Program-made: the position numbers and the translations under genes
Notes under the pieces: generated by a model
Seen by the model: only the letters and a program-made list of their open reading frames with translations
Database searches by the model: none
Told to the model about the DNA's origin: nothing
From: Patescibacteria group bacterium
GTDB taxonomy: Bacteria > Patescibacteriota > Patescibacteriia > Patescibacteriales > UBA12465
NCBI GenBank assembly: GCA_041671365.1
Contig: JBAZBP010000001.1
Location: 389,518 to 453,517, forward strand
DNA length: 64,000 nucleotides
Direction: 5' to 3'
In this document: in pieces, positions 13,762-64,000 of the stretch
Layout of the letters: each line of letters begins with the position of its first letter
How positions within the stretch are numbered: the first letter of the stretch is position 1

Positions 13762-16236
13762 ATGTTGGAATTATTTGCCAATATTGAAAGCTTAATCCCG
13801 GACTTGCTTATTGGCATGGCGATCGCTTTTTTTATGTTGGCGATTTTAATCATTATTCGTTCGCTTTTGTCCGGTCATCGCTACTCGCCTCATCAAATAT
13901 TCTTGGTTCGTCTGCCTAAAGAGACTCCCGATGACAATAAAAATGAAGATCGCAGCCAGGAATTAAAAGAAGAAATTGCTAAAGGCGAGACGGTTTTTTC
14001 AGCGATTGGCGGTTTAAAAGCGCAAAGAGGTTTTCGCGCTTGGCTTTGGGGACGCAATGATCAGTTTTCTTTTGAAATTGTCGCCAATCATAATCGAATT
14101 TCTTTTTACGTCGCCGCGCCTCAGGGGAGCTTTCGGTATCTGGAACAACAGATCCAGGCTTATTATCCGGAAGCGGTCATTGAAGAAATGGAGGATTATA
14201 ATGCCTTCAGCTTAAAAGGGACAATCGTTGCCGGTCATATCCGAACCGCTAAAAGTTTTATTTTTCCGATTAAAACTTATCAGAAAATGGAGATAGATCC
14301 GCTCAATTCATTAATTAATATTCTGTCTAAACTTGATAAAGACGAAAGTTTGATAATTCAATATACCGTTAGAAGCGCTCTCGGTTCTTGGCACGCTAAA
14401 ACCAGACGCGTCGTCACCAGAATTAATCAAAAAAATTCGGTTAAAGAAGGTCTAAAGGGCGATAATTTGTTCGGACAAATTTTTAATCTTTTCGAAGGAA
14501 TGTTCATAGTTAGCTCTAAACCTAAAAATGAAGCTAACCTGACGGCTACGCCCAAAAAATTATCGGCCGTGGAAGAAGAAATGCTTAAGTCGATTGAAGA
14601 AAAAAATACGAAAGCGGGGCTAGATGTTAATATTCGCATTATTGCCTGTGCTCGCAGCCGAGAACAAGCGAATGTTTATTTAGAAAATATCAGCAGCGCT
14701 TTTACCGAATATAATAATTTTAGTTACGGAAATGTTTTTTCTCGCCTTAATAAGGCCAATATTGATCGAACAATTTCTGATTTCATTTATCGCCGCTTTC
14801 GAGAAAATATTGGATTTTTATTAAACACCGAAGAGTTGGCCAGCATTTTTCATTTTCCTCTTAAAACTACGGAAACTCCAAACATTAATTGGTTGACAGC
14901 TAAAATAGCCCCGGCTCCTTCAGACTTGCCTGATGAGGGAATAACCCTCGGAGAAAATGTTTACCGCGGCGTGACCAAAGAAATCCGGATGAAACGGGCG
15001 GATCGCCGCCGCCACACCTATATTATCGGTAAATCCGGCGTCGGCAAATCGGTACTGCTCGCCAACATGGCGATTCAAGACATCCAAAACGGAGAAGGAG
15101 TCTGCGTTTTAGATCCTCATGGTGATTTGATAACCGATATTTTAGATCGAATACCGCCCGAGCGCGCCGAGGATGTGATTGTTTTTTCTCCCGGCGATTT
15201 AGAGCGCCCGTTGGCCTTAAATTTACTGGATTATGACGAGCGTTATCCGGAACAAAAAAGTTTCGTTATTAACGAAATGATCGGTATTTTTGATAAATTG
15301 TATGATTTAAAAGCGACCGGGGGTCCGATGTTCGAGCAATACATGCGTAATGCTATGCTTTTAATTATGGATGATCCGGAGAGCGGGTCGACATTAATGG
15401 AGATTCCTAAAGTTTTGTCTGATGAGAATTTTCGACGTTTAAAATTGAATCGCTGTAAAAATCAGACGGTAGTTGATTTTTGGAAGAAGGAGGCGGAGAA
15501 AGCTGGCGGGGAAGCGGCGCTCGCCAATATCGTTCCTTATATTACTTCTAAATTAACTTCTTTTATTTCTAACGACATGATGCGGCCGATTATCGGCCAG
15601 CAAAAAAGTGCTTTCAATATGCGGGAAGTAATGGATAAGCAGAAAATTTTATTAATCGACCTGCCTAAGGGTTTAGTCGGCGAAATGAACGCTTATTTAT
15701 TGGGCATGATTTTAGTCGGTAAAATATTAATGGCCGCTTTATCGCGAACCGACATGGCGGCTGCTACCCGCAAAGATTTCTATTTGTATATTGATGAATT
15801 TCAAAATTTCACCACTAGCTCTATTTGTCAAATTTTATCGGAAGCGCGAAAATATGCTCTTAATTTAGTAATTGCCCATCAATATATCGGACAGTTAGCT
15901 AAAAATAATAATACTGAAATTAAAGATGCGGTTTTCGGTAACGTCGGAACTCTGGTAAGCTTTAAAATCGGCTCAGAGGATGCTGATTTTCTGGTTAAAG
16001 AATTTGCACCGGTCTTTAATGAATATGATTTAATTAATATTGATAAAGGGACGGCTTATATTAAATTATTGGTGGATAATAGTGCCAGTCGGCCATTTTC
16101 TCTAAAAACGATCTGGCCGCTCCTGGGGGTTAAGCGGGAAGGAATGGAAAGTAAAGTTAGAGCGCTTAGTCGTTTAAAGTATGGCCAGAACGTTCGTCTG
16201 GTGGAAGCGGAAATTAGTCGTCGATCAATCAGTTAA
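13762..16236 (+). CDS. membrane-anchored P-loop ATPase, VirD4/TraG/TraD-like (type IV coupling-protein-like)
   Basis: N-terminal TM, Walker A IIGKSGVGKSVLL, Walker B FYLYIDEFQNF, conserved AHQ. Confidence 0.6.
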   Translation: MLELFANIESLIPDLLIGMAIAFFMLAILIIIRSLLSGHRYSPHQIFLVRLPKETPDDNKNEDRSQELKEEIAKGETVFSAIGGLKAQRGFRAWLWGRNDQFSFEIVANHNRISFYVAAPQGSFRYLEQQIQAYYPEAVIEEMEDYNAFSLKGTIVAGHIRTAKSFIFPIKTYQKMEIDPLNSLINILSKLDKDESLIIQYTVRSALGSWHAKTRRVVTRINQKNSVKEGLKGDNLFGQIFNLFEGMFIVSSKPKNEANLTATPKKLSAVEEEMLKSIEEKNTKAGLDVNIRIIACARSREQANVYLENISSAFTEYNNFSYGNVFSRLNKANIDRTISDFIYRRFRENIGFLLNTEELASIFHFPLKTTETPNINWLTAKIAPAPSDLPDEGITLGENVYRGVTKEIRMKRADRRRHTYIIGKSGVGKSVLLANMAIQDIQNGEGVCVLDPHGDLITDILDRIPPERAEDVIVFSPGDLERPLALNLLDYDERYPEQKSFVINEMIGIFDKLYDLKATGGPMFEQYMRNAMLLIMDDPESGSTLMEIPKVLSDENFRRLKLNRCKNQTVVDFWKKEAEKAGGEAALANIVPYITSKLTSFISNDMMRPIIGQQKSAFNMREVMDKQKILLIDLPKGLVGEMNAYLLGMILVGKILMAALSRTDMAAATRKDFYLYIDEFQNFTTSSICQILSEARKYALNLVIAHQYIGQLAKNNNTEIKDAVFGNVGTLVSFKIGSEDADFLVKEFAPVFNEYDLINIDKGTAYIKLLVDNSASRPFSLKTIWPLLGVKREGMESKVRALSRLKYGQNVRLVEAEISRRSIS

Positions 16237-16274
16237 TCATTAAGTTTTTAATTTTTTTTCGTTTAAATAAAACT

Positions 16275-17729
16275 ATGTCTACCTTATATCGTGATTATCG
16301 TCCTCAGAATTTTTCGGAAGTCCTCGGTCAAAATCATATTAAAATAACTTTACAAAATGAAATTGGCGCGGGCCGGCCGGCGAGCGCTTATTTATTCTGC
16401 GGACCGCGCGCTGTCGGTAAAACGACCTTGGCTCGGGTGTTAGCGAAAGCGGTTAATTGCGTTGAGCGTCCGAATGGTAAATTCGAACCTTGTAACGCTT
16501 GTGCCAGCTGTCTCAGTATTACGGTCGGTAAAAATTTAGATGTTGTAGAAATTGATGCCGCCAGTAATACCGGGGTTGATAACGTTAGAGATAATATTAT
16601 TGCTTTTTCTCGCGTTGCTCCGATTAGCGCTAAGTTTAAAGTTTTTATAATTGATGAAGTGCACATGTTGTCTTTATCCGCTTTTAACGCTTTATTAAAA
16701 ATAATCGAGGAGCCGCCGTCCTACGTAATATTTATTTTATGTACGACAGAGATTCAAAAGGTTCCCGGTACGGTTATTTCGCGCTGCGAGCGTTATGATT
16801 TTAAACGCATCAGCGTGAAAGAGATAGTTAAAAAATTAGCTTATATCGCCGGCCAGGAAAAAATTAATATCGATAGTGATGTTCTGGAAGCCGTCGCCCG
16901 ACGTTCCGGCGGTCACCTGCGAGACGCGGAAAGTTTATTGGGACAGATTTTTTCGCTAGGCGATAAACAAATAACTCGGGAACAGGCGGAACTGGTTATT
17001 CCGCACTATAATAGTAATGAAGCGATCAGTCTGATAGATTATTTAAGTCGTAAAGATGCGGCGAAAGCTATTGCCTTGATTAATAATTTAATGGATAGCG
17101 GAGTTAATGTTAAGATTTTTATTACGGAAATAATCGAATTATTGCGTAAAATAATGCTTAGCAAATTAAGCCCGGAATTGGTTGATAATTTAGGCCTAGA
17201 TTTAGGAGAAAGCCTCGAAAAAAGATTGGCGAGCGTGGCGGTTAATTTAAATTGGGAACAAATTCTAACTTTCACCAGGCGTTTTTTAGAGACGGTAAAC
17301 GATTATAAAAATCCGTTGATCCCTCAATTACCCTTAGAGTTAGCGGTGGCCGAATTATGTTTCGGCTCAGCTCGATCCGGCAGTTCGGGGTCGTCGCCCG
17401 CAGATTTTAACTCCTCGCCGCCTAAACCGTACATCCAAACTAAAAAAGAAGGATCGGTTACTCCCCCTGCCGTTCGTTCGTCAGACCTTAAAAAATCCGA
17501 TCTTAATTTAGGCACCGCCGAGATTAGTTCCAAATGGCCGGAATTTTTAGTAAAAATTAAAAAACATAATCATTCCTTGTCTTTTGTTTTGCAAAATTGC
17601 GAACCGCGTGAAATAAAAAATGGTAATTTATTTTTAGTTTTTAAATATAAATTTCATCAAGATCGAATCAATGACGTAAATATAAAAAAATATTGTCGCC
17701 GCGACTTTAGCGGAAGTTTTTGGAGATAA
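16275..17729 (+). CDS. dnaX: DNA polymerase III subunit gamma/tau, zero-frame product
   Basis: YRPQNFSEVLGQ, GPRAVGKTT, IIDEVHML, SRCERYDF. The zero frame stops 13 codons after the A7 run. Confidence 0.88.
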   Translation: MSTLYRDYRPQNFSEVLGQNHIKITLQNEIGAGRPASAYLFCGPRAVGKTTLARVLAKAVNCVERPNGKFEPCNACASCLSITVGKNLDVVEIDAASNTGVDNVRDNIIAFSRVAPISAKFKVFIIDEVHMLSLSAFNALLKIIEEPPSYVIFILCTTEIQKVPGTVISRCERYDFKRISVKEIVKKLAYIAGQEKINIDSDVLEAVARRSGGHLRDAESLLGQIFSLGDKQITREQAELVIPHYNSNEAISLIDYLSRKDAAKAIALINNLMDSGVNVKIFITEIIELLRKIMLSKLSPELVDNLGLDLGESLEKRLASVAVNLNWEQILTFTRRFLETVNDYKNPLIPQLPLELAVAELCFGSARSGSSGSSPADFNSSPPKPYIQTKKEGSVTPPAVRSSDLKKSDLNLGTAEISSKWPEFLVKIKKHNHSLSFVLQNCEPREIKNGNLFLVFKYKFHQDRINDVNIKKYCRRDFSGSFWR

Positions 17730-17910
17730 TTTAACCTTTAGTTCGGTGATCGATGAAAATCTGGAAGTAAAACATTATGAAGCGCCCGGGGTTTCCGAGG
17801 CCTTGGCCGTTGATTCCGTCCAGACAGAAATCAAAACAAAAACCGGTCAATCGTCCCCCGGCTTGATTGCCGATTTATTAAAAACTTTCGGCGGGGAAGT
17901 AATCACTTAA
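17692..17910 (+). CDS. dnaX: dnaX C-terminal segment readable only in the +1 frame
   Basis: The +1 frame is open over 17686-17910 and reads IVAATLAEVFGDNLTFSSVIDENLEV...GLIADLLKTFGGEVIT, a typical DnaX C-terminus. Confidence 0.6.
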   Translation: MVAATLAEVFGDNLTFSSVIDENLEVKHYEAPGVSEALAVDSVQTEIKTKTGQSSPGLIADLLKTFGGEVIT

Positions 17911-17939
17911 GAATAAAAACCTTATTTAAGTTTAAATTT

Positions 17940-19193
17940 ATGTTAGATCTAAAATTAATTAGAGAAAAAACGGCGGAAGTTAAAGCCGCACTTTTAAAAA
18001 GAATGGACCAGGCCAAATTAAACTTGGAAAGGATTATTTCTTTAGACGATGAGCGTTGTCAGTTGACCAAGCAGCTGGAAGAACTGCAAGCCCAGCGCAA
18101 TAGATATTCTAAAACTAAACCAACGGCGGAAATTATTGCCGAGATGAAAATAGTGGGTGAAAACATAAAGAGCTTAACGGAAAAATTATCGGCCGCGGAG
18201 AAAGAATTAAACGATTACCTGCTGGAACTACCGAACTTGCCAGCGGCGGACGTTGTCGCCGGCGGTAAAGAAAATAACGAAGTAATTTTTACTTATGGTC
18301 AAAAACCGAAATTTAATTTTATCCCCAAAGATCATGTCGAGCTCGCCACCTCTTTAGATATTATCGATTATAAGCGCGCCGTTAAAATGTCCGGTAACGG
18401 TTTTTGGTGCTATAAAGGGGCCGGCGCTCTGCTGGAATGGGCCTTATTATCATATTTTATCGAATGGCATAATAAAAATGGTTATCAGTTTTTAATCCCC
18501 CCTTTTTTGTTGACGGAAAAATCCGCCTATACTTCCGGTCATCTGCCGAAATTCGGCGATGATTTGTTTTGGACTCAAGACGGTTTATGTCTAAACGCTA
18601 CGAGTGAAATGATGCTCGGTAATTATCATCGCGAAGAAATTTTAGACGAGAAAACCTTGCCTTTGAAATATTTTGCTTATTCTCCCTGTTTTCGGCGAGA
18701 GGCCGGCAGTTATCGGGCGGAAGAGCGGGGAATGATTAGGGGCCATCAATTTAATAAAGTGGAGATGTTTATCTTTTCACGGCCGGAAGAATCTTGGGAA
18801 ATGTTTGCGGAATTGGTTGATCAGGCGAAAAAATTGGTAATCGGTTTAGGCTTAAATTTTCAGATTTCTAAACTGGCGGCCGAAGATTGCAGTGCGGCCA
18901 TGGCCAAAACTTATGATCTAGAAATTTTTATTCCCAGCATGCAAATTTATAAAGAAGTTAGCAGTATTTCCAATGCCTTGGACTATCAGGCGCGCCGCGG
19001 TCAAACTCGTTATAAAAATATTGCGACCGGTAAAAACGAATTTGTCCACACGCTGAACGCTTCCGGTTTGGCGACCAGCCGGTTACTACCGGCGATTTTA
19101 GAGCAAAATCAACAGGCTGACGGTTCGGTGGTTATCCCTAAAGTTTTACATAAATATTTACCGCGGGGAATGAAAATTATTAAAGCCCGTTAA
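17940..19193 (+). CDS. serS: seryl-tRNA synthetase
   Basis: N-terminal coiled-coil MLDLKLIRE, class II motifs FRREAGS and GHQFNKVE, NASGLATSR. Confidence 0.92.
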   Translation: MLDLKLIREKTAEVKAALLKRMDQAKLNLERIISLDDERCQLTKQLEELQAQRNRYSKTKPTAEIIAEMKIVGENIKSLTEKLSAAEKELNDYLLELPNLPAADVVAGGKENNEVIFTYGQKPKFNFIPKDHVELATSLDIIDYKRAVKMSGNGFWCYKGAGALLEWALLSYFIEWHNKNGYQFLIPPFLLTEKSAYTSGHLPKFGDDLFWTQDGLCLNATSEMMLGNYHREEILDEKTLPLKYFAYSPCFRREAGSYRAEERGMIRGHQFNKVEMFIFSRPEESWEMFAELVDQAKKLVIGLGLNFQISKLAAEDCSAAMAKTYDLEIFIPSMQIYKEVSSISNALDYQARRGQTRYKNIATGKNEFVHTLNASGLATSRLLPAILEQNQQADGSVVIPKVLHKYLPRGMKIIKAR

Positions 19194-19212
19194 TTTAAAT
19201 TATTTCGGGAAT

Positions 19213-21246
19213 TTGAACATACTAATGAAAAAAATATTAATCATCATTTTAATTAGCGTATTTTTTTGGCCGCTCCTGTCGCGAGCGGTAGTTTTAAAAG
19301 ACGATTATCCGCGCTTGGCTAATTATTTTTTAAAATGGGAAATCAGCGATACTGAGGCGCTAGAATTGGCGAAATGGGATGTTTTAATTTTAGATATGGA
19401 AGTTCAAGAAAACAGCCGAGATCAATTAATTAAAATTAGAGAACTTAATCCGCGTATTATAATTTTAGCTTATATAACTTCTCAAGAAATTTTGGATAAT
19501 ATTAATGAATATAACCAGGCTTACGTTCGACAGGATTTAGATCGAGGATTATTTGACGGTTGGTGGCTTCGCGATGCTCAGGGTTATAAAGTCTCCAATT
19601 GGCCGAACACCTCGATGCTAAATTTATCAGACGGAGCCTTGCCCGATGCCAAGGGTGAAAGATTTAACGATTATTTACCGGAATTTGTGGTCAATAAATT
19701 AAAATCGACCGGTCTCTGGGATGGAGTTTTTTATGACAATACTTGGGGCGAGCTTAGCTGGGTCAGCAACAAAAATTTAGATTTGAATAATGATGGACAG
19801 GCGGAAAGCGCCGCGACGGCCGATCGTCTATGGGCCGAGGGATTTAAAAAAATGTTAGCTAAAACGCGCGCTTTAGCCGGCCGAGATTTTATTATTATCG
19901 GTAATGGCCGAGTTTACGAGGGTTATCAAACTATTTTAAACGGAGTAATGCTGGAAAATTTTCCTTCAGCCTGGGAAAATGGCGGCACTTGGTCGGGTTC
20001 GATGCAAACTTATTTAAAATTGCCGACCCTTAACGCTTATCCGCAAATTTCGATTATTAATATTTATGATAAAAATCAGCAAAATTATCGGCGGATGCGT
20101 TATGGCTTGAGCAGTACGCTTCTCGGCGACGGATTTTACAGCCATGATTACGATGTTACCAGTCCCGGTCAGACTTGGTGGTATGATGAATATAGCGTTA
20201 ACCTGGGAACACCCCGTTCCTCGGCTTATAATTTATTGGCTGCCCCCGGAGTCGGCGGAAATTGGTCGTCAGGTTTATGGCGTCGAGATTTTAAAAATGG
20301 AGTGGCGATAGTAAATTCGACCGCTAAAAAACAAGTTTATGTTTTCGCTCAAGAAGAGTTTGAAAAAATAAAAGGCGTTCAAGATAAAATTATCAATAAC
20401 GGCCAGAAGATTAATTATTTGTCTCTGGAACCGCAGGACGGCATTCTTTTATGGAAAAGAAGCACTTTAATCACAGATAGCGCTTTCGTTAACGGTTATT
20501 TTTATCGAGTTTATAATTTAGGCGGCGTCAAACAAGGCAATGGTTTTTTTTCTTATGTCGGCGCTTATCCCGGCGAAGCTGAAGTTATAATTTCCAGCAG
20601 TGACAATAATAAAAAGAATATGAATTTAAGCGGAGCGAGCGGCCAAGTCGGGATATATCAAAATGGTAAAAAAATTAAAACACTGGTTCCATACGGCAAT
20701 CTTTATAAAAAATCTTTGAGTTTGGCGGCGCCGCTTAAAGATGCTTACTGGCCAAATATTATTGTCGGAGCCGGAATTGGCGGCGGGCCGCAAGTTAGTG
20801 TTTTTACCGGAGACGGGAGGTTAAAATATAGTTTCTTCGCCTATGATAAAAATTTGCGCGGCGGCGTTAATGTCGCCGCCGGTGATTTTAACGGCGACGG
20901 TCAAATAGAGATAGCAACTGCTCCGGGGCCGGGAACAGAACCGCGGATAAAAATTTTTTCTTTATCCGGACGTTTAGAAAATAATTTTCTGGCTTATGAT
21001 TCTAAATTTAAAGGCGGCGTTAATGTCGCCGCCGGTGATTTTAACGGCGACGGACGTCAAGAGATAGCCACCAGCCCGGTTTCCGCCGGCGGGCCGCAGG
21101 TCAGAATTTTTAACAGTAACGGCCGGGTGCTGGGCAGTTTTTTTGCCTATGATCAGAGCTATCACGGTGGTATAAATGTAGCCGCCAGCGATATTAACGC
21201 CGACGGCCGGGCGGAAATTTTAGTCGGTCTTAAGAATTTTTATTAA
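19213..21246 (+). CDS. secreted protein: glycoside-hydrolase-like TIM-barrel domain (GH114/GHL-like) plus C-terminal FG-GAP repeats
   Basis: Signal peptide; WDVLILDME, NPRIIILAYIT, GLWDGVFYDN, GVMLENF; three VAAGDFNGDG-type repeats. Family assignment is from memory of motif patterns. Confidence 0.55.
   Translation: MNILMKKILIIILISVFFWPLLSRAVVLKDDYPRLANYFLKWEISDTEALELAKWDVLILDMEVQENSRDQLIKIRELNPRIIILAYITSQEILDNINEYNQAYVRQDLDRGLFDGWWLRDAQGYKVSNWPNTSMLNLSDGALPDAKGERFNDYLPEFVVNKLKSTGLWDGVFYDNTWGELSWVSNKNLDLNNDGQAESAATADRLWAEGFKKMLAKTRALAGRDFIIIGNGRVYEGYQTILNGVMLENFPSAWENGGTWSGSMQTYLKLPTLNAYPQISIINIYDKNQQNYRRMRYGLSSTLLGDGFYSHDYDVTSPGQTWWYDEYSVNLGTPRSSAYNLLAAPGVGGNWSSGLWRRDFKNGVAIVNSTAKKQVYVFAQEEFEKIKGVQDKIINNGQKINYLSLEPQDGILLWKRSTLITDSAFVNGYFYRVYNLGGVKQGNGFFSYVGAYPGEAEVIISSSDNNKKNMNLSGASGQVGIYQNGKKIKTLVPYGNLYKKSLSLAAPLKDAYWPNIIVGAGIGGGPQVSVFTGDGRLKYSFFAYDKNLRGGVNVAAGDFNGDGQIEIATAPGPGTEPRIKIFSLSGRLENNFLAYDSKFKGGVNVAAGDFNGDGRQEIATSPVSAGGPQVRIFNSNGRVLGSFFAYDQSYHGGINVAASDINADGRAEILVGLKNFY
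20860..21053 (+). repeat. two perfect 41-nt direct repeats 153 nt apart inside the FG-GAP region
   Basis: ggcggcgttaatgtcgccgccggtgattttaacggcgacgg occurs at 20860-20900 and 21013-21053. Flanks have diverged. Confidence 0.9.
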
Positions 21247-36210: not shown

Positions 36211-36245
36211 AAAATACCGCCCTGAATTCAGGGCGGTATTTTTTA
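36211..36245. terminator. bidirectional terminator (32-nt perfect palindrome)
   Basis: AAAATACCGCCCTGAA / TTCAGGGCGGTATTTT lies between convergent genes. Confidence 0.75.
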
Positions 36246-37463
36246 TTTGAGAAGTTTTTGATAAAGGGCTAATACTTCTTTAATATTTTGATCGGGCGAG
36301 AAGGCTTCGACGGTTTTTTTAGCTTCCCGACCGATAGCTAATCGATCGATTTCAGTCAAACGTTTTATCTGTCTGACCAAATCATTAACATCACCGGGTT
36401 GAAACAGCAAACCGTTTTTATTTTCTTTTATCACTTCGGGCATACCGCCGATTCTGGATACGATGACAATCTTTCCCAGACTAAGCGCTTCCATTAAGCT
36501 TAAAGGCATGTTCTCTCCCCAAATTGAAGGAATAATGACGGCTCGAGCGTTCACGATAATCGGTTTTAACTCCTGATTATTTTTAAATCCGCTGAATTCT
36601 ACGGGCGCCCTCAGCTCTGTCGCCAATTTTTTTAGAGCGGCTTCTTCCGCTCCCTCGCCGACCAGTTTAGTTTTTTGGCCGGTGAGAGCAGCTGCTCGAA
36701 TCAAAGTCTCTAAGCCCTTTTCTGGGCTGAAACGACCAAAATACAAAAGATATTCGGGACTACGGTTATTTTTTTCGTCGCCGCGAGTTCCCGCCAATTC
36801 GGAGTTATAAGGGTTAAAAATAACCGAAATTTTTTCCGCCGGGTGTCCAAAATTAACGACAATTTCTTTCATAAAATTGCTGGGAGCAATAAACCAAGAA
36901 ACGTTTTGTTCATAAATTTTTAAAATCGAATGATGCCAATACATTTCTAGGGTACCCAGGGCGCTTCCGGCGAAAGAGTTTTTAATACATCTATTTTTTA
37001 GACATTCATAGTACTTGTTCGGCCGGCAGCGTTCACACATCATCCCTTTGGTAAATAAAGTGTGATTGGCGCAAATTAATTTATAATCTTGCAAATGCAG
37101 AACTACCGGTATTTTATATTTTTGGGATACGCTTAAAATCGAAGGTGATAGATGATGATAAATATTATGCAGGTGGATAATATCCGGCTGAAAATCTCTA
37201 ACCAACCGAGTAAATTTTTTTTTCGCTTCTAAACTATATAATACCCGGCCCGGCGTTTTTAACTTATCGATTAAATTGCCCTCGTTAAAGCTGATACGCG
37301 AAACGAAATAACGACTCCAAAGGGTCGGCCAATTTTTAGGATGATGCATGGAAAAGACGGCAACTTGATGTCCGGCCGCTTCTAAATTTTTCGTTAAATC
37401 GAGAAAATATTTATCGGCGCCGCCGCGAGGATAATAAAATTGATTAACTTGTAATATTTTCAT
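36243..37463 (-). CDS. GT4-family glycosyltransferase
   Basis: MKILQVNQFYYPRGGADKY, EGAEE.., PSIWGENMPLSLMEALS. Confidence 0.8.
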   Translation of the reverse strand: MKILQVNQFYYPRGGADKYFLDLTKNLEAAGHQVAVFSMHHPKNWPTLWSRYFVSRISFNEGNLIDKLKTPGRVLYSLEAKKKFTRLVRDFQPDIIHLHNIYHHLSPSILSVSQKYKIPVVLHLQDYKLICANHTLFTKGMMCERCRPNKYYECLKNRCIKNSFAGSALGTLEMYWHHSILKIYEQNVSWFIAPSNFMKEIVVNFGHPAEKISVIFNPYNSELAGTRGDEKNNRSPEYLLYFGRFSPEKGLETLIRAAALTGQKTKLVGEGAEEAALKKLATELRAPVEFSGFKNNQELKPIIVNARAVIIPSIWGENMPLSLMEALSLGKIVIVSRIGGMPEVIKENKNGLLFQPGDVNDLVRQIKRLTEIDRLAIGREAKKTVEAFSPDQNIKEVLALYQKLLK

Positions 37464-38586
37464 GGCTGATATTTTTTTTATTTAATAAATCGAAATATAA
37501 AACCTGATATCTTTTCGCAATTTTAGAAATATCATAATTATTAATTATTCGTTCCCGTAAGCGTTCGGCTCTGAAGTTAACTTCCGGACTATCAATATTG
37601 TTAGCGAGCCAATAAATTTTAGCCGCCCAGGCCGCCTCGTCGCCGGCCGGTACCGGCCAACCGGTGCCTTCATCAATAATCTCCCTGATACCGTCAACCG
37701 ACGAAGCGATTATTGGTAAACCGATTAAACCCGCTTCCAATAAAACCAGACCCTGCCCTTCCCATAAAGAAGGAAAAACAAACACATCAAGAGAATTAAG
37801 AAACCGAACCGATTCTACCGGACCGACTAATTTTATCTCCGTTTTTAATTTTGCGGCGGCTATTTCATCTTTTAATTTATGGGCGAGAGGTCCGACACCG
37901 GCGATCAGGCATAAATACCCCCGCTGTTTTAATTGCTTCCAAACGCGAATTAGGCCGGAATACCCTTTTTGCGGACTAAGCCGGCCGATTGTTCCGAAAA
38001 CTAGAGGTTTATTTTTTCTGACCTGATTAACGACAGAATTTTTAGCTTGATTTAAAAATTTATTTATTTCCAAACCATTGGGAATAACAATAATTTTATT
38101 TTCTTTGGTGCGATAACGAGAAATCAGATCGCTTTTAACCGCTTGAGAAATGGCGACAATCTTATCGGCATAACGGCCGGTGATTCTTTTGATAATATTA
38201 TTTAGCAGTTTTTCATCGGGATTAACATTTTGTTCCGTTGATAAAATAACCGGTATTTTTAATAACTTAGCCGCCAGTCGGCCGTAAATATCGCCGCCAA
38301 GCTGGGTATGGACAATTTCGGGATTAATTTTTTTCAAAACTTTAAATAGTTGCCAAAAATTTATTAGATCAATTTTATGTTTTTTTTCTAAAATAATAAC
38401 GGGAATATTTTTTGTGCTTAATTCGCTTAACCAATCGCCGCCGCGCTTAAACAAAATTAAAGTTGAGTTGAAAAATCGACTATCTAAATTAAGAATTAGA
38501 TCCGTTATAAATCTTTCCGCCCCGCCCTTGTCCAGCGAGGGCATAACATAAACAATCTTAATTTTATTTTGACGGCTTTGGTTCAT
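37444..38586 (-). CDS. GT4-family glycosyltransferase
   Basis: KIVYVMPSLDKGGAERF and PSLWEGQGLVLLEAG. 20-nt overlap with the downstream gene. Confidence 0.8.
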   Translation of the reverse strand: MNQSRQNKIKIVYVMPSLDKGGAERFITDLILNLDSRFFNSTLILFKRGGDWLSELSTKNIPVIILEKKHKIDLINFWQLFKVLKKINPEIVHTQLGGDIYGRLAAKLLKIPVILSTEQNVNPDEKLLNNIIKRITGRYADKIVAISQAVKSDLISRYRTKENKIIVIPNGLEINKFLNQAKNSVVNQVRKNKPLVFGTIGRLSPQKGYSGLIRVWKQLKQRGYLCLIAGVGPLAHKLKDEIAAAKLKTEIKLVGPVESVRFLNSLDVFVFPSLWEGQGLVLLEAGLIGLPIIASSVDGIREIIDEGTGWPVPAGDEAAWAAKIYWLANNIDSPEVNFRAERLRERIINNYDISKIAKRYQVLYFDLLNKKNISHENITS

Positions 38587-39850
38587 ATTTTTTTTCTAAT
38601 AGTCTAACCGCTACCAAAGCTAAGGTAATTGGCAGCCAAATTTTACCTTGATAGTAGGAGGTATTGAAAAATTGAAAAAACAATCCGCCGGCGCCGGCTA
38701 AAAATAACGGTAAGAGCCAGGGGTTGCCGGTTTGATATTTTTTTACAGATTCATAACTGATTTTTATCAGATAAATCATAATAAATAACCAAGCCGCTAA
38801 ACCGAAGATGCCATTCTCAACCAGAATTTTTTGCAAGAATCCGTGTGAATCTATCGGAGAACCGAACTTAGCGATAAAACGAATATTATGACTTATAAGA
38901 CTAACATACTGGCCACTACCTTGGCCAAGATAAGGTTTGGCCAAAAAAGCTTGCCAGGAAATTTCTGTCAGCAGCCGGCGACTCGCGGTTGAACCGGCGT
39001 TATCTTGCTGAAATTGATCCATTTTCCAGCCGAGCGGCGAGAGAATCAACAGCAAAATGATAGTAGTTATAATAATGTTTTTCGACTGATAATTTTTTAT
39101 TCGCAAATAATACCAAACATAAATTAGAATTTGTAATAATAAAGTAATCCAAGCGGCGCGAGAAAATGTCAAAATAATCGCGAAAGCCGTTAAAATAAAA
39201 ACTATATTCAACAAACGCTTAAACCCCCGATGTTTTATCAGCGCTTTTAAGACTAAAATCAAAAATATTCCGATGTTTAAAAACTCGGCAATTAAATTAT
39301 GATTCTGTCCAAAAGGATAAATACCCCACCAGCCGATAGTATTTAATTGGTATAAATTATTATGCCAATCTTGGCCATAGAGCGACAAATAACCGCAAAT
39401 TAAGACAACGCTAGCGCCGGCCAGCAGAGCGGTTATGGTCCGCTTTAATATCCGACCGTCGATAATTAAATTATAGGGCAAAAATATATAAGCAAAATAT
39501 AGAAAAACCGGCCAGCGGGCGATATAGTATAAAGAAGAAAACGGTTGAGACGAAAAAATGGCTGATAAAATATTAAAAAATAAGAAAACAGCAAAAGGAA
39601 AAAATAAGGGCCAAACGATTGGTTGTTTTGACGAAAAATTAAAAAAGAAAAAGAAAACGGTTCGCAAAATGAAAGCTGTTAAAACTAAAAGTGCGAGAAG
39701 ATCAATCAAGGGGAGCAAAAAACCGTAAATATCAAAAGACCAACCGCTTACCGGCAGCAAAAAAGCCATTAAGTATAAACCAATTAGCGGTTTAACCAAA
39801 AAAATGGCTAAGAATAAAACTAAAGCTAGAATAACGAATATAGTCCACAT
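38564..39850 (-). CDS. O-antigen ligase/polymerase-like (Wzy_C) membrane protein
   Basis: About 10 TM helices and the FSRAAWITLLLQ motif. Confidence 0.6.
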   Translation of the reverse strand: MWTIFVILALVLFLAIFLVKPLIGLYLMAFLLPVSGWSFDIYGFLLPLIDLLALLVLTAFILRTVFFFFFNFSSKQPIVWPLFFPFAVFLFFNILSAIFSSQPFSSLYYIARWPVFLYFAYIFLPYNLIIDGRILKRTITALLAGASVVLICGYLSLYGQDWHNNLYQLNTIGWWGIYPFGQNHNLIAEFLNIGIFLILVLKALIKHRGFKRLLNIVFILTAFAIILTFSRAAWITLLLQILIYVWYYLRIKNYQSKNIIITTIILLLILSPLGWKMDQFQQDNAGSTASRRLLTEISWQAFLAKPYLGQGSGQYVSLISHNIRFIAKFGSPIDSHGFLQKILVENGIFGLAAWLFIMIYLIKISYESVKKYQTGNPWLLPLFLAGAGGLFFQFFNTSYYQGKIWLPITLALVAVRLLEKKYEPKPSK

Positions 39851-51841: not shown

Positions 51842-52447
51842 CTATCTAGAATTAACAAAAGGATTGGGTTCGTTAAAAGCTATTCTGGGGATAGAATTAT
51901 TTATAACGTGGCAATCTAAACCATATTTTTTATTATATTGAACATCAACTCCGGCGAATAGAGCTTGAGCATAATCAAACCCTAGTTTTTTACTAACTTC
52001 CTTCACGGCCTCTTCCGATTTTCCCTCAACTTCAACAAAGGGTTCTAGATATGGCCATTCATCAATCATTATCTCGACGCTATTTAAAGTCCAAATCTCC
52101 CGTTTTGTTTCCTGATAAGCTTTTTCTACACAACCAATCGATTTCAAAAAATCCATGCCCTCGGAAAAACTATCAATACACAAACAGATTTCTTTTTGAT
52201 TCTCGATCTTATTGCCTTCAATTATTTTCAAACTCATAGTAATCTTATCTTCTTCATCTCTAACTCTTAGCCACCCTCCCTTAATTTCGTGTCCGGACGG
52301 CAAATCAAAATTAATCCGTTTTTGCAAAAATTCCGGTTTTACTAAAATAGCCCCCGCATTTTTTAAACGGGCGCGGATATCATCTTTGTTGACGTTGGTA
52401 AAAGTGGCTTCGTATTCAATGTTCATATGTCTATGATTATTAGTCAT
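51842..52447 (-). CDS. CYTH-domain protein (CyaB-like / triphosphatase fold)
   Basis: N-terminal IEYEATF (EXEXK-like), WLRVRDE, MSLK, IMIDEWPYLEPFVEVEG. Confidence 0.55.
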   Translation of the reverse strand: MTNNHRHMNIEYEATFTNVNKDDIRARLKNAGAILVKPEFLQKRINFDLPSGHEIKGGWLRVRDEEDKITMSLKIIEGNKIENQKEICLCIDSFSEGMDFLKSIGCVEKAYQETKREIWTLNSVEIMIDEWPYLEPFVEVEGKSEEAVKEVSKKLGFDYAQALFAGVDVQYNKKYGLDCHVINNSIPRIAFNEPNPFVNSR

Positions 52448-60082: not shown

Positions 60083-61297
60083 TTACTTGTTTTTATTATA
60101 ATTAAACGTGTAAGATTGTTCAAAAGCCTTAACAAGGCTCTTTATATTAGTAATCATGACCGATTCGTCGTTTCTGAAGAAACCGTTAGAACTCCAATTA
60201 TTTGTTCCAAAAACCGCAATCCGATCATCAAGCACCAGAAGGTGGTGGTGTAGAAATGAATTTAGATCGTCGTCCGGTAAAATTTTAGCGATTTCTTGAT
60301 TTCTATTACTGTCAGTAATAATTTCTAAATTATTTAAATTTTGTCTATTTTTTTGAGCTGCTAATACTGGGAAAGCCGACCCGGTCGCCGACCAATTATA
60401 GTCATCGGTAATAATACTGACTGGTATTTGTTTTGACTTTAGGGCTAGCTCGGCCGCTACGTCCTTATCGGTTAAAGACCAGGTCATAATTTTTATATTA
60501 TCTCTAGAATTCCGAATTAAGTTTAGCATTCTATCTTTTATATTATTATCGACTAACCCGGGCGAAAACCAAATCTCAATAAAACCTTCTGGGTATCTTA
60601 TTAAGGCGGCGTAAGGATTATAATTAGCAGATTTCTTTACGCTGCCGTGTAGCCCTCCGGCTAAACGGTCAAATTCATCGCCAAAAAGACTAATTAATTC
60701 CGGCCGTTCGGTTGTTAATATGAAACTGGGGTCATATTTACCCTGGATATTCGTAAAATTATATGAACCAAAAAATAACTTTGGCTGAGCAGACCCGCGA
60801 TCAATCAGCAAAAATTTATGATGCATTGAACCGCCGTTTGAAGAAACAAAACTAATTTTCAAATTTTTGTGATTATTGACAAATAGATTCTCTATTCCGT
60901 TTTGATGCTTATCACTAAAAACCAAATCAACTGAAACGCCCCTGGCCGCCGCTCGATATAAGGCATCGCGGATAGCCGAATTATCCATAGAATACATGGC
61001 CAGCTCTATTTTATTTTTCGCCGCATCAAGGCCATTAACAATTAATTCCGAAAAGACATCCAAGCCTAATTCATCATTAAAATATAAATTTGCTGAAAAC
61101 GATTCGTTAACTTCGATAGTTCTGGCCGGTGGCGACGTTATTACTTCGCGATTTTGATACAATCTAAAAAAAGTTAAACCTAAATATAGGCATAAAATTA
61201 ACAGGAGGAGAGGCAGGGCGATAACAATAAATTTCTTATTAAAATTATCTCCAATTTTTATTTTAACTTTCCGTATTAAAATCTTTAGCCAGATCAT
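60083..61297 (-). CDS. membrane-anchored phospholipase D / Nuc-family protein with two HKD-type motifs
   Basis: K/R-rich N-terminus plus one TM. Motif 1 is HHKFLLID...GSYNFT (around 60804-60823). Motif 2 is HHHLLVLDDRIAVFGTNNWS (60196-60250), with His where the Lys is expected. Confidence 0.75.
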   Translation of the reverse strand: MIWLKILIRKVKIKIGDNFNKKFIVIALPLLLLILCLYLGLTFFRLYQNREVITSPPARTIEVNESFSANLYFNDELGLDVFSELIVNGLDAAKNKIELAMYSMDNSAIRDALYRAAARGVSVDLVFSDKHQNGIENLFVNNHKNLKISFVSSNGGSMHHKFLLIDRGSAQPKLFFGSYNFTNIQGKYDPSFILTTERPELISLFGDEFDRLAGGLHGSVKKSANYNPYAALIRYPEGFIEIWFSPGLVDNNIKDRMLNLIRNSRDNIKIMTWSLTDKDVAAELALKSKQIPVSIITDDYNWSATGSAFPVLAAQKNRQNLNNLEIITDSNRNQEIAKILPDDDLNSFLHHHLLVLDDRIAVFGTNNWSSNGFFRNDESVMITNIKSLVKAFEQSYTFNYNKNK

Positions 61298-62981
61298 AAT
61301 GTCTGTCGTACTTTAAATTAATATTTTTTTTATTGGCAAAAACAATCAGGATTGATTCCGGTAAATCTGAATCAATAATCTTTAATATCTTTTCAATATC
61401 TGGGTAGTTTAAATCGAGCCAGGCATTATCTATAATAATTAGTGATGGCCTGGCGACCAAACAATGCAAAGAATGCAAAGCAAAGGCGGCCACGTGGTTA
61501 GTCCAAATTTTATCAGCTGTCGAACTAAAATTATAATTAGTCGTCACGAGCCCGGTTAACAAGGGGTAGGCGGCCATAATTTTTAAAGCCCGATCAATCT
61601 CGGAAAAATCAGTTTCCTCCCGATCTGAACCCAAAATTAATTCCATCAAACTTTTTTGCGAATAAAAAAGCGGATCAAAAAAATATACTTTATTAAACTG
61701 CCGCTGATAATCAGAAAAATCCAGCCGGCGTCCGTCTAATTTAACTTTTATTGCTTTAGAACTATAAGTTTCGGCTCCAAAAAATAATTTAGCTAAAGTA
61801 GTTTTACCGGAAAGATTGGGACCATAAAATAAATAACGGCCTTTTTTTAGAAAATTAAAACATAAATTTCGGTAATATTTCCCAGTTTTTAGTAATTTTA
61901 CTTTTCGGCTATAAAAAGTAATCCCCTGCTTAATATCTAACACGTTATCACGACGTCGATATTTATTCATTTTGATATTGGTCAATGAAAAACCCAATTT
62001 AGCCGGAAAAAAATAAAGACCGACACGCAAAGCCTCATAGGCAACCCGGGATAAATAGATTAATAAAAAAGCATAGAGAAATTTAAGATCCGGACTAATT
62101 AAATTAATCCAGGAAATTAAATCATTATAAAAAAAATGGGTCAACATGGAAACGAACAAGAGTAAAATAAAAATTATTTTAAAACCCATTTTCATCCATA
62201 AATCCCGACGCACCCTAAAAATGGAATCAAATTTAACTAATGAATCGAATTTCTTTAAAATTATTGGCTCCAGATTAAAACTTTTTAAAAAATATTTTTC
62301 CGACAAGCTTAAATCAATATGTTTAATTATTTGAGAGTAAAAAGTAACTTCCTGAGAAACATATTTTTTAACTACAAAGTAAGCGGGAACCACAATAATT
62401 AGCGATAATATTAAAAAGCTAATTAAAATAATTAACATGTTAAAGCCGGCCAATGAGGCGACAATCACCGCCGAAATTACATAAATCAACCAGCGAATAA
62501 AACCAAAAAAGGAATTAGATATACCCATGGAGACTAGAGGCAGATGGTAAGAAATTTTAGCGATTAAGTCGGCTTGTTTCTCCGGCTTCATTTCTTCGAA
62601 CGGTCGCCCCAAGTAATTTCTAAAAATTCGACGACGAAGATAGTTAATCAAAAGAACCACTACCGTTTTTTCTTGTTTAATAGATAAAAAAGAATTGATA
62701 ATAAAAACGAGAAAAAATACCCAAAATATTTGCCAAAAAAATAAGCTCAAAGTCTTATCCCCGCCATAAACTAATTGATTTCGGCTAAAAACTATCAGAG
62801 AAGTCTCAATAATTCCCTGCGTAATTAGAAGCACTATTGTTCCTAGCAGAAGAAATCGCTGTTGTTTTAAAAAAATAAGCAGATAACTCGAATAAGGGTT
62901 AGGCCGATTAGCGACTTGGTTTTTATTACGGCTAACGCGGATTCTTTTTAATAACCGCATCTGCTCTTTAATGTTTATCAT
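61263..62981 (-). CDS. ABC-exporter-like protein (6-TM domain plus degenerate nucleotide-binding domain)
   Basis: The TM domain resembles type I exporters. Walker A is GPNLSGKTT (61797-61823). Walker B is LIIIDN, with Asn (61425-61427) where the catalytic Glu is expected. No LSGGQ signature and no H-loop His. Confidence 0.65.
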   Translation of the reverse strand: MINIKEQMRLLKRIRVSRNKNQVANRPNPYSSYLLIFLKQQRFLLLGTIVLLITQGIIETSLIVFSRNQLVYGGDKTLSLFFWQIFWVFFLVFIINSFLSIKQEKTVVVLLINYLRRRIFRNYLGRPFEEMKPEKQADLIAKISYHLPLVSMGISNSFFGFIRWLIYVISAVIVASLAGFNMLIILISFLILSLIIVVPAYFVVKKYVSQEVTFYSQIIKHIDLSLSEKYFLKSFNLEPIILKKFDSLVKFDSIFRVRRDLWMKMGFKIIFILLLFVSMLTHFFYNDLISWINLISPDLKFLYAFLLIYLSRVAYEALRVGLYFFPAKLGFSLTNIKMNKYRRRDNVLDIKQGITFYSRKVKLLKTGKYYRNLCFNFLKKGRYLFYGPNLSGKTTLAKLFFGAETYSSKAIKVKLDGRRLDFSDYQRQFNKVYFFDPLFYSQKSLMELILGSDREETDFSEIDRALKIMAAYPLLTGLVTTNYNFSSTADKIWTNHVAAFALHSLHCLVARPSLIIIDNAWLDLNYPDIEKILKIIDSDLPESILIVFANKKNINLKYDRHYDLAKDFNTES

Positions 62982-64000
62982 AATGGAATTTCTTGTACTG
63001 ATTATATAATGAGGTAATTTTTATGTCGACCAAGGATTTAAACAATCGGTGACGGTTACGGGGAGAATATCGTTTATAAAAAAATTTAGTGAGAATGGAA
63101 AAAAACTTTTCCGACATTTTTTTTATTTGACTTGAATTATTTATTTGGGATTTATCTTTAATAATTTTTAAAAACTGATTATTAAAATTTTTTTCCGGAT
63201 TAATCATTATTTTTTTTAAAAGTTTTTGTTTGGCCGAATCCTTCAGGTGTTGATAGGTTAAAATATTTTTCCAGACCGCTTCGTTCCTGGCGACAAAGGC
63301 CGGTTCCAATCCGATTATTCCGGAATTAAAGGTGTAGCCTAAAAAAACATATTTTTTTTGAGCCGCTCCAAAAAATAATTTTTTTCGATTAAGCTCAAGG
63401 CCGCGAGCCGATAAATCAACGGCCAACTCGCTTAATATTTTCCGAAGTTTATCTTTATCGGGATCTAAAAAGGCAATATCATCTCCGACTCTAATATAAA
63501 AAGCGGATTTAACTTGATATTTAAAATCTAAATCCGTCAAATATAAATTAGCAAAAAGCGCTATCAAGGGCACTCCCTGTACTAGTCCTTGTAAGGGTAT
63601 GTCGCGCTTCCCGTCTCGATATATTTGATTAAAAATAAACAAATGTAAAAGATCTAAAATTTTTTGATCACTAAAAAGTTTTTGTAGCTGTAAATACATG
63701 ATATTCCGATCAATCCGATCAGAATAATTTTTTAAATCTATAATTAAAGCCTGATCGGTCAAAAACTCCTTTCGATAGCGACGACAAAAAATACGAGCCG
63801 CTAAATACGGCGGCTTATCCGGTCGATATGAAAAAAGACGACTGGAAAAAGCGTCTTCAAATTTCGGTAAAACAACTCGATAGATAGCCTGAGCCTTAAT
63901 TCTTTCTTTAAGGTTGTATATAAAAATTTCTCGGTACTCTTCAGGCTTATTCCTTTTAGGAATTTTAATAGCCTGAGCCGGCTCGATTTCTCTTCTTTGC
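62968..64000 (-). CDS. reverse transcriptase, unclassified; N-terminus beyond the window edge
   Basis: The frame is open to position 64000; the track M at 63762 is an internal TTG. Hand translation upstream gives ...AIKIPKRNKPEEYREIFIYNLKERIKAQAIY...FSYRPDKPPYLAA... (RT motifs 1-2). Later motifs are IIDLKNYSDRID (3), LQGLVQGVPLIALFANLYLTDLD (4), FYIRVGDDIAF (5) and GLELNRKK...VFLGYTF (6-7). Confidence 0.8.
   Translation of the reverse strand, partial: QRREIEPAQAIKIPKRNKPEEYREIFIYNLKERIKAQAIYRVVLPKFEDAFSSRLFSYRPDKPPYLAARIFCRRYRKEFLTDQALIIDLKNYSDRIDRNIMYLQLQKLFSDQKILDLLHLFIFNQIYRDGKRDIPLQGLVQGVPLIALFANLYLTDLDFKYQVKSAFYIRVGDDIAFLDPDKDKLRKILSELAVDLSARGLELNRKKLFFGAAQKKYVFLGYTFNSGIIGLEPAFVARNEAVWKNILTYQHLKDSAKQKLLKKIMINPEKNFNNQFLKIIKDKSQINNSSQIKKMSEKFFSILTKFFYKRYSPRNRHRLFKSLVDIKITSLYNQYKKFHYDKH

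Follow-up and report, generated by a model that had tools for sequence, protein, structure and literature searches.

The dnaX gene in the 64-kb stretch of DNA analysed here (the window) is broken at a run of seven As, and this frame break is very probably a homopolymer-length consensus error in a MAG; judged by sequence comparison, the organism would have an ordinary dnaX of 544 codons. As a recoding site, the break is most likely not a real feature, and the organism's dnaX is most likely standard. A run of six As, which restores the frame, is present where the same strain was assembled independently, and relatives of the gene are uninterrupted. From these data we infer that the A7 arose in assembly and is not an allele that the sampled population really carries.

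As assembled, dnaX begins with an ATG at 16275 and stops at a TAA at 17727-17729, giving a 484-aa zero-frame ORF (16275..17729) to which one database protein, MFA6995171.1 (P0002), encoded on a 529,534-bp contig, is identical. At the site the zero frame reads AAT ATA AAA AAA TAT TGT CGC ..., with the tail K-YCRRDFSGSFWR, and ends 13 codons past a run of exactly seven As (17684-17690). The +1 frame is closed by a TAA at 17683-17685, then stays open from 17686 to a TAA at 17908-17910 and encodes KNIVAATLAEVFGDNLTF...GLIADLLKTFGGEVIT; both frames are open at once over 17686-17729 only. Deleting one A joins both parts of dnaX into a 544-aa protein, in which the peptide spanning the site is ...DVNIKNIVAATLAEVFGDNLTF..., against ...DVNIKKYCR... 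in the zero frame. The frames, stops, A7 and overlap had been described in a first-pass annotation of this DNA, and all of them were confirmed on re-reading. Because the window, at 38% G+C, contains 143 A/T runs of at least seven, an A7 in dnaX is unremarkable in itself. The features of the locus, all on the + strand, are as follows.

16275..17729, +, dnaX as assembled: 484-aa ORF in the zero frame with the same sequence as MFA6995171.1
17684..17690, +, A7 homopolymer with, very probably, one A too many: A6 in the independent same-strain contig L090, T-A5-T in the closest relative
17691..17910, +, probable true 3' end of dnaX in the +1 frame, 73 codons and stop: purifying selection; relatives and L090 continuous
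17691..17729, +, probably spurious zero-frame tail YCRRDFSGSFWR and stop, arising from the extra A: conserved in no relative
17508..17764 (approximate), +, predicted folded DnaX C-terminal domain: model of P0001, weak Pfam matches, invariant residues
17875..17910, +, C-terminal tail motif LLKTFGGEVIT and stop: common to most relatives compared

An exact match in Logan contigs to SerS, the protein encoded next to dnaX (17940..19193), led us to L090, the 2,595-nt Logan contig SRR18595301_2089584 from run SRR18595301. Over its 2,595 nt it aligns to window positions 17578..20173 without a mismatch, and the one gap lies in the dnaX A-run, which is A6 in L090 versus A7 in the window. Its translation proceeds in a single frame through the site (...FKYKFHQDRINDVNIKNIVAATLAEVFGDNLTF...LLKTFGGEVIT, then stop). 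An A6 with one continuous ORF, which the first-pass annotation had named as the observation that would tell against programmed recoding, is therefore what the independent assembly carries. Another four independent contigs of the strain, three from Logan and one from ENA (MEGAHIT), match the window at 100% identity over 7.7 kb, and both data sets therefore sample the same strain; across 10.3 kb aligned, including 59 A/T runs of at least six, the two differ by this one A only. The Logan contigs measure 1.5-3 kb, their coverage seems low, and L090 is not infallible. An exact-pattern scan of JGI metagenome contigs with the site flanks and a variable run length gave no match, and exact look-ups of the truncated DnaX and of the proteins encoded at 13762..16236 and 51842..52447 recorded nothing. 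In general, such breaks can be checked cheaply without reads by following an identical neighbouring protein to a second assembly of the strain.

The difference has the form expected of an assembly error: a single base, located within a homopolymer whose in-frame length is present in independent same-strain data, between flanks that are both intact coding sequence under purifying selection and free of any other lesion. The homopolymer-length error that the first-pass annotation had offered as its alternative is the reading favoured here. Under this reading, an A7 would have been written into the MAG consensus where the organism has A6, and the real gene would be a single-ORF dnaX of 544 codons, equal to window positions 16275..17910 minus one A. 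Its product would be a tau-type clamp-loader subunit comprising an AAA+ module, domain III, a low-complexity linker, a folded C-terminal domain and an FGGEVI tail, and recoding would play no part at dnaX.

Related genes are continuous across the site. Of the 120 homologs that match best, 118 span 100% of the repaired DnaX as single proteins; the other two are the truncated protein of the window itself and an entry of 509 aa. P0001, the closest relative at 88% aa identity and present on 16 contigs, reads GCT ATT AAA AAT ATT GTG (A-I-K-N-I-V) with an in-frame A5, where the window has AAT ATA AAA AA(A) T. On this codon comparison, a synonymous ATT-to-ATA change would account for A6, and the window stands one A beyond. 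All 48 aligned relatives, taken from genome and metagenome contigs, read through the site in a single frame; L019 (contig end), L030 (aberrant tail) and L083 (mis-anchored) were left out of this alignment. Since the codon for the conserved Lys at the site varies among the 48 relatives (AAA, AAG, CGG, AGA), the slippery run is not conserved. The first-pass annotation had proposed looking for a conserved A-run and frame break in related dnaX genes, and with A5 in the closest relative and 48 of 48 continuous, both are absent.

The segment downstream of the break is real coding sequence, because its 73 codons differ from those of P0001 by 25 synonymous and 8 non-synonymous changes, and by 6/2/26 nucleotides at codon positions 1/2/3. 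Compared with P0001, these codons carry no further lesion, and the +1 segment is, by this measure, under purifying selection. A tail of the form LL..FGG(E/K)(V/I)(I/V) ends most relatives (tails of ~50 compared). That the +1 frame encodes the normal DnaX C-terminus, as the first-pass annotation had read it, is thus borne out by homologs, relatives' tails and purifying selection alike. Among named genomes, a Candidatus Falkowbacteria MAG is nearest, at 69% identity, and a scan of species-representative genomes gave relatives at 69% identity or less.

Four distant relatives (L018, L032, L045 and L061) have an in-frame A7 within a few codons of the site, for example ATG AAA AAA ATA; Lys and Asn codons are A-rich, so in-frame A7 runs are common near the site without a frame break. 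The dnaX of L030 (CAZAVD010000027.1) ends in an aberrant hydrophobic tail, ...FIKNNLCFIFIYYFYGC, rather than the FGGEVI motif, which may reflect a frameshift or assembly problem in that MAG.

Once repaired, the gene closely resembles ordinary single-ORF dnaX genes of Patescibacteria, such as those of Candidatus Falkowbacteria GW2011_GWF2_43_32 (LCGL01000003.1, L020) and P0001. It has the same domain order and falls in their length class (544 aa versus 534-570 aa); it also shares the block FKYKFHQDRIND..IK.IV..TLAEVFG and the FGGEVI tail, and its locus has the gene order of theirs (DUF87 ATPase, dnaX, serS, GHL15/FG-GAP). The sole difference is the extra A at 17684-17690 in the assembly. With a standard dnaX in the organism, the biological weight of the break is small; the deposited MFA6995171.1 (484 aa) would be truncated, with a spurious 13-residue tail, and the correct product would be 544 aa.

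By its family matches, the repaired protein is a bona fide DnaX. It scores 391 bits against TIGR02397 dnaX_nterm (cut-off 250) and 442 bits against NF004046 (cut-off 400), so that both curated family scores for the AAA+ clamp-loader module lie above their cut-offs. Pfam returns DNA_pol3_delta2 (E = 1.4e-37), DNAX_ATPase_lid and DNA_pol3_gamma3, and domain III (the gamma/tau collar) is matched by PF12169 at 36.8 bits (cut-off 24.4) over residues 248-363. Weak matches to Pfam DnaX_C (16.6 bits, under its cut-off of 26.2) and to PolC N-terminus II lie at residues 417-502. A tau-type C-terminal domain and a tail like those of relatives are obtained only after removal of one A. Invariant positions are W420 P421 E422 F423 ... 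K456 Y457 K458 F459 H460 R463 V480 in the C-terminal domain and, in the tail, L533, L534, F537, G538 and G539 (39-sequence alignment).

The full-length AlphaFold model is poor (mean pLDDT 60.8), and the C-terminal domain alone was used. In the model of intact P0001 (88% identical), residues ~411-495 are the best-defined part, with pLDDT of 82-86, and the predicted order of elements in the domain is helix, helix, two strands, two helices, strand. The break site is predicted to fall in the last long helix (467-481), before the strand at 486-491 and the tail helix. Because the break lies inside that helix, the zero-frame product would carry a damaged C-terminal domain and would not be a clean isoform. 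The gamma of E. coli and of Thermus ends just after domain III, a position different from the helix cut here within the folded domain, which argues against a programmed origin of the short form. We also considered independent translation of a 54-codon GTG ORF (17746..17910) and rejected it, its start being inside the conserved domain.

The first-pass annotation had conceived of a programmed event giving two DnaX isoforms. In such a scenario the genome would have A7, and transcriptional slippage or +1/-2 ribosomal frameshifting would set the ratio of short to long DnaX, with the long form requiring a shift as in the two-ORF dnaX of Chlorobi and others. We find this barely credible. What speaks for it is that dnaX is a classic recoding gene. 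In E. coli and its relatives, decoding of the gene shifts by -1 at A AAA AAG, in Thermus slippage takes place at A9 (PMC1088944), and the literature agrees with the first-pass annotation on both examples (PMC1088944, PMC3711429). Full-length tau is the product of standard decoding in both organisms, and the shift yields the shorter gamma, a defined product with functional properties of its own (PMC1088944, PMC3711429). The window's dnaX belongs to the same gene family and has an A-rich slippery sequence in its coding region; unlike in those two, it is the short form that the assembled sequence yields on standard decoding.

The phase of the run, A_AAA_AAA, also speaks for recoding, and it favours a -1 slip. 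The conserved DnaX C-terminus, however, needs a +1 or -2 shift, and we rejected a -1 frameshift at A_AAA_AAA because the -1 frame gives only KKILSPRL and a stop, 8 codons in all. The site thus has the slippery heptamer of an E. coli-type -1 frameshift in phase, but the shifted frame lacks the conserved product. The stimulators of that type are missing as well: whereas E. coli dnaX has an upstream Shine-Dalgarno-like sequence and a downstream stem-loop, no Shine-Dalgarno-like (GGAGG/AGGA-like) sequence occurs in the 30 nt upstream of the run here. For the 80 nt downstream, the folding energy is -16.2 kcal/mol (z = -0.39), with 64 of 200 shuffles folding at least as well, and nothing at the site is conserved.

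The nearest precedent is the two-ORF dnaX described from 12 genera, including Chlorobi and others, in which poly-A slippage at A7-A10 is required for tau (Antonov et al. 2013, PMC3711429). As in those genes, the longer conserved product here needs a frame change at an A-run; their runs are mostly of 10 As, with single cases of 9, 8 and 7 (PMC3711429), so that one such case matches the seven As of the window. The 10-A cases, 9 of 17 two-ORF genes, align with the Thermus poly-A site (PMC3711429), whereas the break here lies inside the C-terminal domain. The two-ORF genes also have their downstream ORF in the -1 frame at the DNA level, against +1 here, and their run and break are conserved across genera, while the break here is private to one assembly. 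As for slippage, the run and frame organisation is not conserved (48 of 48 relatives are continuous), nor is the break itself stable, as the same strain has A6 with one ORF; at seven As the run is of borderline length, slippage sites usually having 8 or more and one described two-ORF case 7. Programmed recoding is unsupported because L090 has A6 and relatives' dnaX is uninterrupted without a conserved A-run. Of the first-pass interpretation as a whole, the assembly-error alternative and the +1 C-terminus stood and the programmed recoding fell. Even if real, a two-isoform scenario for dnaX here would have been of an already known kind, and before a homopolymer frame break in a gene so well known for recoding is called programmed, it should be backed by conservation and by reads.

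A second reading accepts the A7 as real and unprogrammed: slipped strands would have inserted the extra A recently, in a subpopulation or sister sample of the strain, and A7 would coexist with A6. Its cells would have a DnaX with a damaged C-terminal domain and, for traces of the full-length protein, would rely on RNA polymerase rarely dropping an A or on a +1 ribosomal slip at AAA AAA, as known for frameshift mutations in poly(A) runs of other bacteria. Homopolymers have elevated real indel mutation rates, which favours such an allele. So does the perfect match of the rest of the assembly to independent contigs, an agreement that suggests an assembler not generally careless with homopolymers, and the MAG could come from a different sample with a real A7 allele. 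Genes disrupted at A/T runs and rescued by polymerase slippage are documented (Baranov et al. 2005, PMC1088944), and the present case is like them in that a one-base change in the length of an A-run disrupts an otherwise intact conserved gene. Those cases, in contrast, have runs of about nine in confirmed genomic sequence, and here the run is seven and the same strain has the in-frame length.

Besides the A6 in the same strain, it counts against a real allele that the insertion would truncate a domain invariant at many positions across relatives. Selection against runs is evident at about nine nucleotides, and slippage sites are usually eight or longer (PMC1088944, PMC3711429), so rescue at seven As should be weak. 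As there are no secondary lesions downstream, a real A7 would have to be very recent. We therefore consider a real allele unlikely. A further form of it, in which A7 coexists with A6 in a Falkowbacteria-like CPR population and full-length tau is still made through a dropped A or a +1 slip, seems highly improbable; if true, it would be a nascent, unfixed two-ORF dnaX like that of Chlorobi, caught at its origin.

The consensus error favoured here has to be weighed against an assembly that is otherwise clean, with 7.7 kb free of differences, no other split gene and a lone discrepancy that falls in dnaX. This coincidence is partly ascertainment, because the site was chosen for being the dnaX break. 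To survey the window, we altered every homopolymer by ±1 base and sought merging ORFs. Only at the dnaX A7 does a change of 1 base fuse parts of the same gene; besides it, eleven candidates were flagged, and none was counted as a second broken gene. One of these, the T5 run at 17717-17721, sits in the same dnaX frame overlap, and three were disregarded as joining only short ORFs (merged length under 460 nt). The remaining seven represent five gene junctions (10636/10641, 21237, 37472/38588, 48999 and 63018), at four of which Pfam gives distinct genes (S41 protease/CTP synthase, GT4/GT4/Wzy, UvrC-like/MGMT and membrane protein/RT). At junction 21237 the Pfam scan covered the downstream ORF only, and the upstream GHL15 protein is 677 aa versus 673 aa in relatives. 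By the ±1-base test and Pfam at the junctions, no other gene split at a homopolymer was found in the 64 kb, which fits one sporadic homopolymer error.

At 36243..39850 (-), two adjacent GT4 glycosyltransferase genes and a Wzy/O-antigen-ligase-like gene share overlaps of ~20 nt, which fall at A8 runs (37472-37479 and 38588-38595). We rejected these as breaks; Pfam shows complete, distinct proteins with ordinary overlapping junctions.

Around dnaX, the gene order over 13762..21246 is a DUF8128/DUF87-type ATPase (824 aa), dnaX, serS and a GHL15/FG-GAP repeat protein (677 aa). This whole order is common to the 88%-identical relative, and a 74%-identical relative keeps it from dnaX onward, its upstream gene being without a Pfam call. 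ARAGORN found no tRNA genes in the 64 kb, and no Rfam family reached its gathering score there. At the far end of the window, 62968..64000 (-) holds a reverse-transcriptase-like ORF (Pfam RVT_1, E = 9.5e-9) that is open to the window end, with its N-terminus outside. It scores 59 bits against the NCBIfam group II intron RT/maturase, far under the cut-off of 300, and has weak Drt3a and Drt2 matches. The ORF overlaps a 572-aa membrane protein (61263..62981) by 14 nt.
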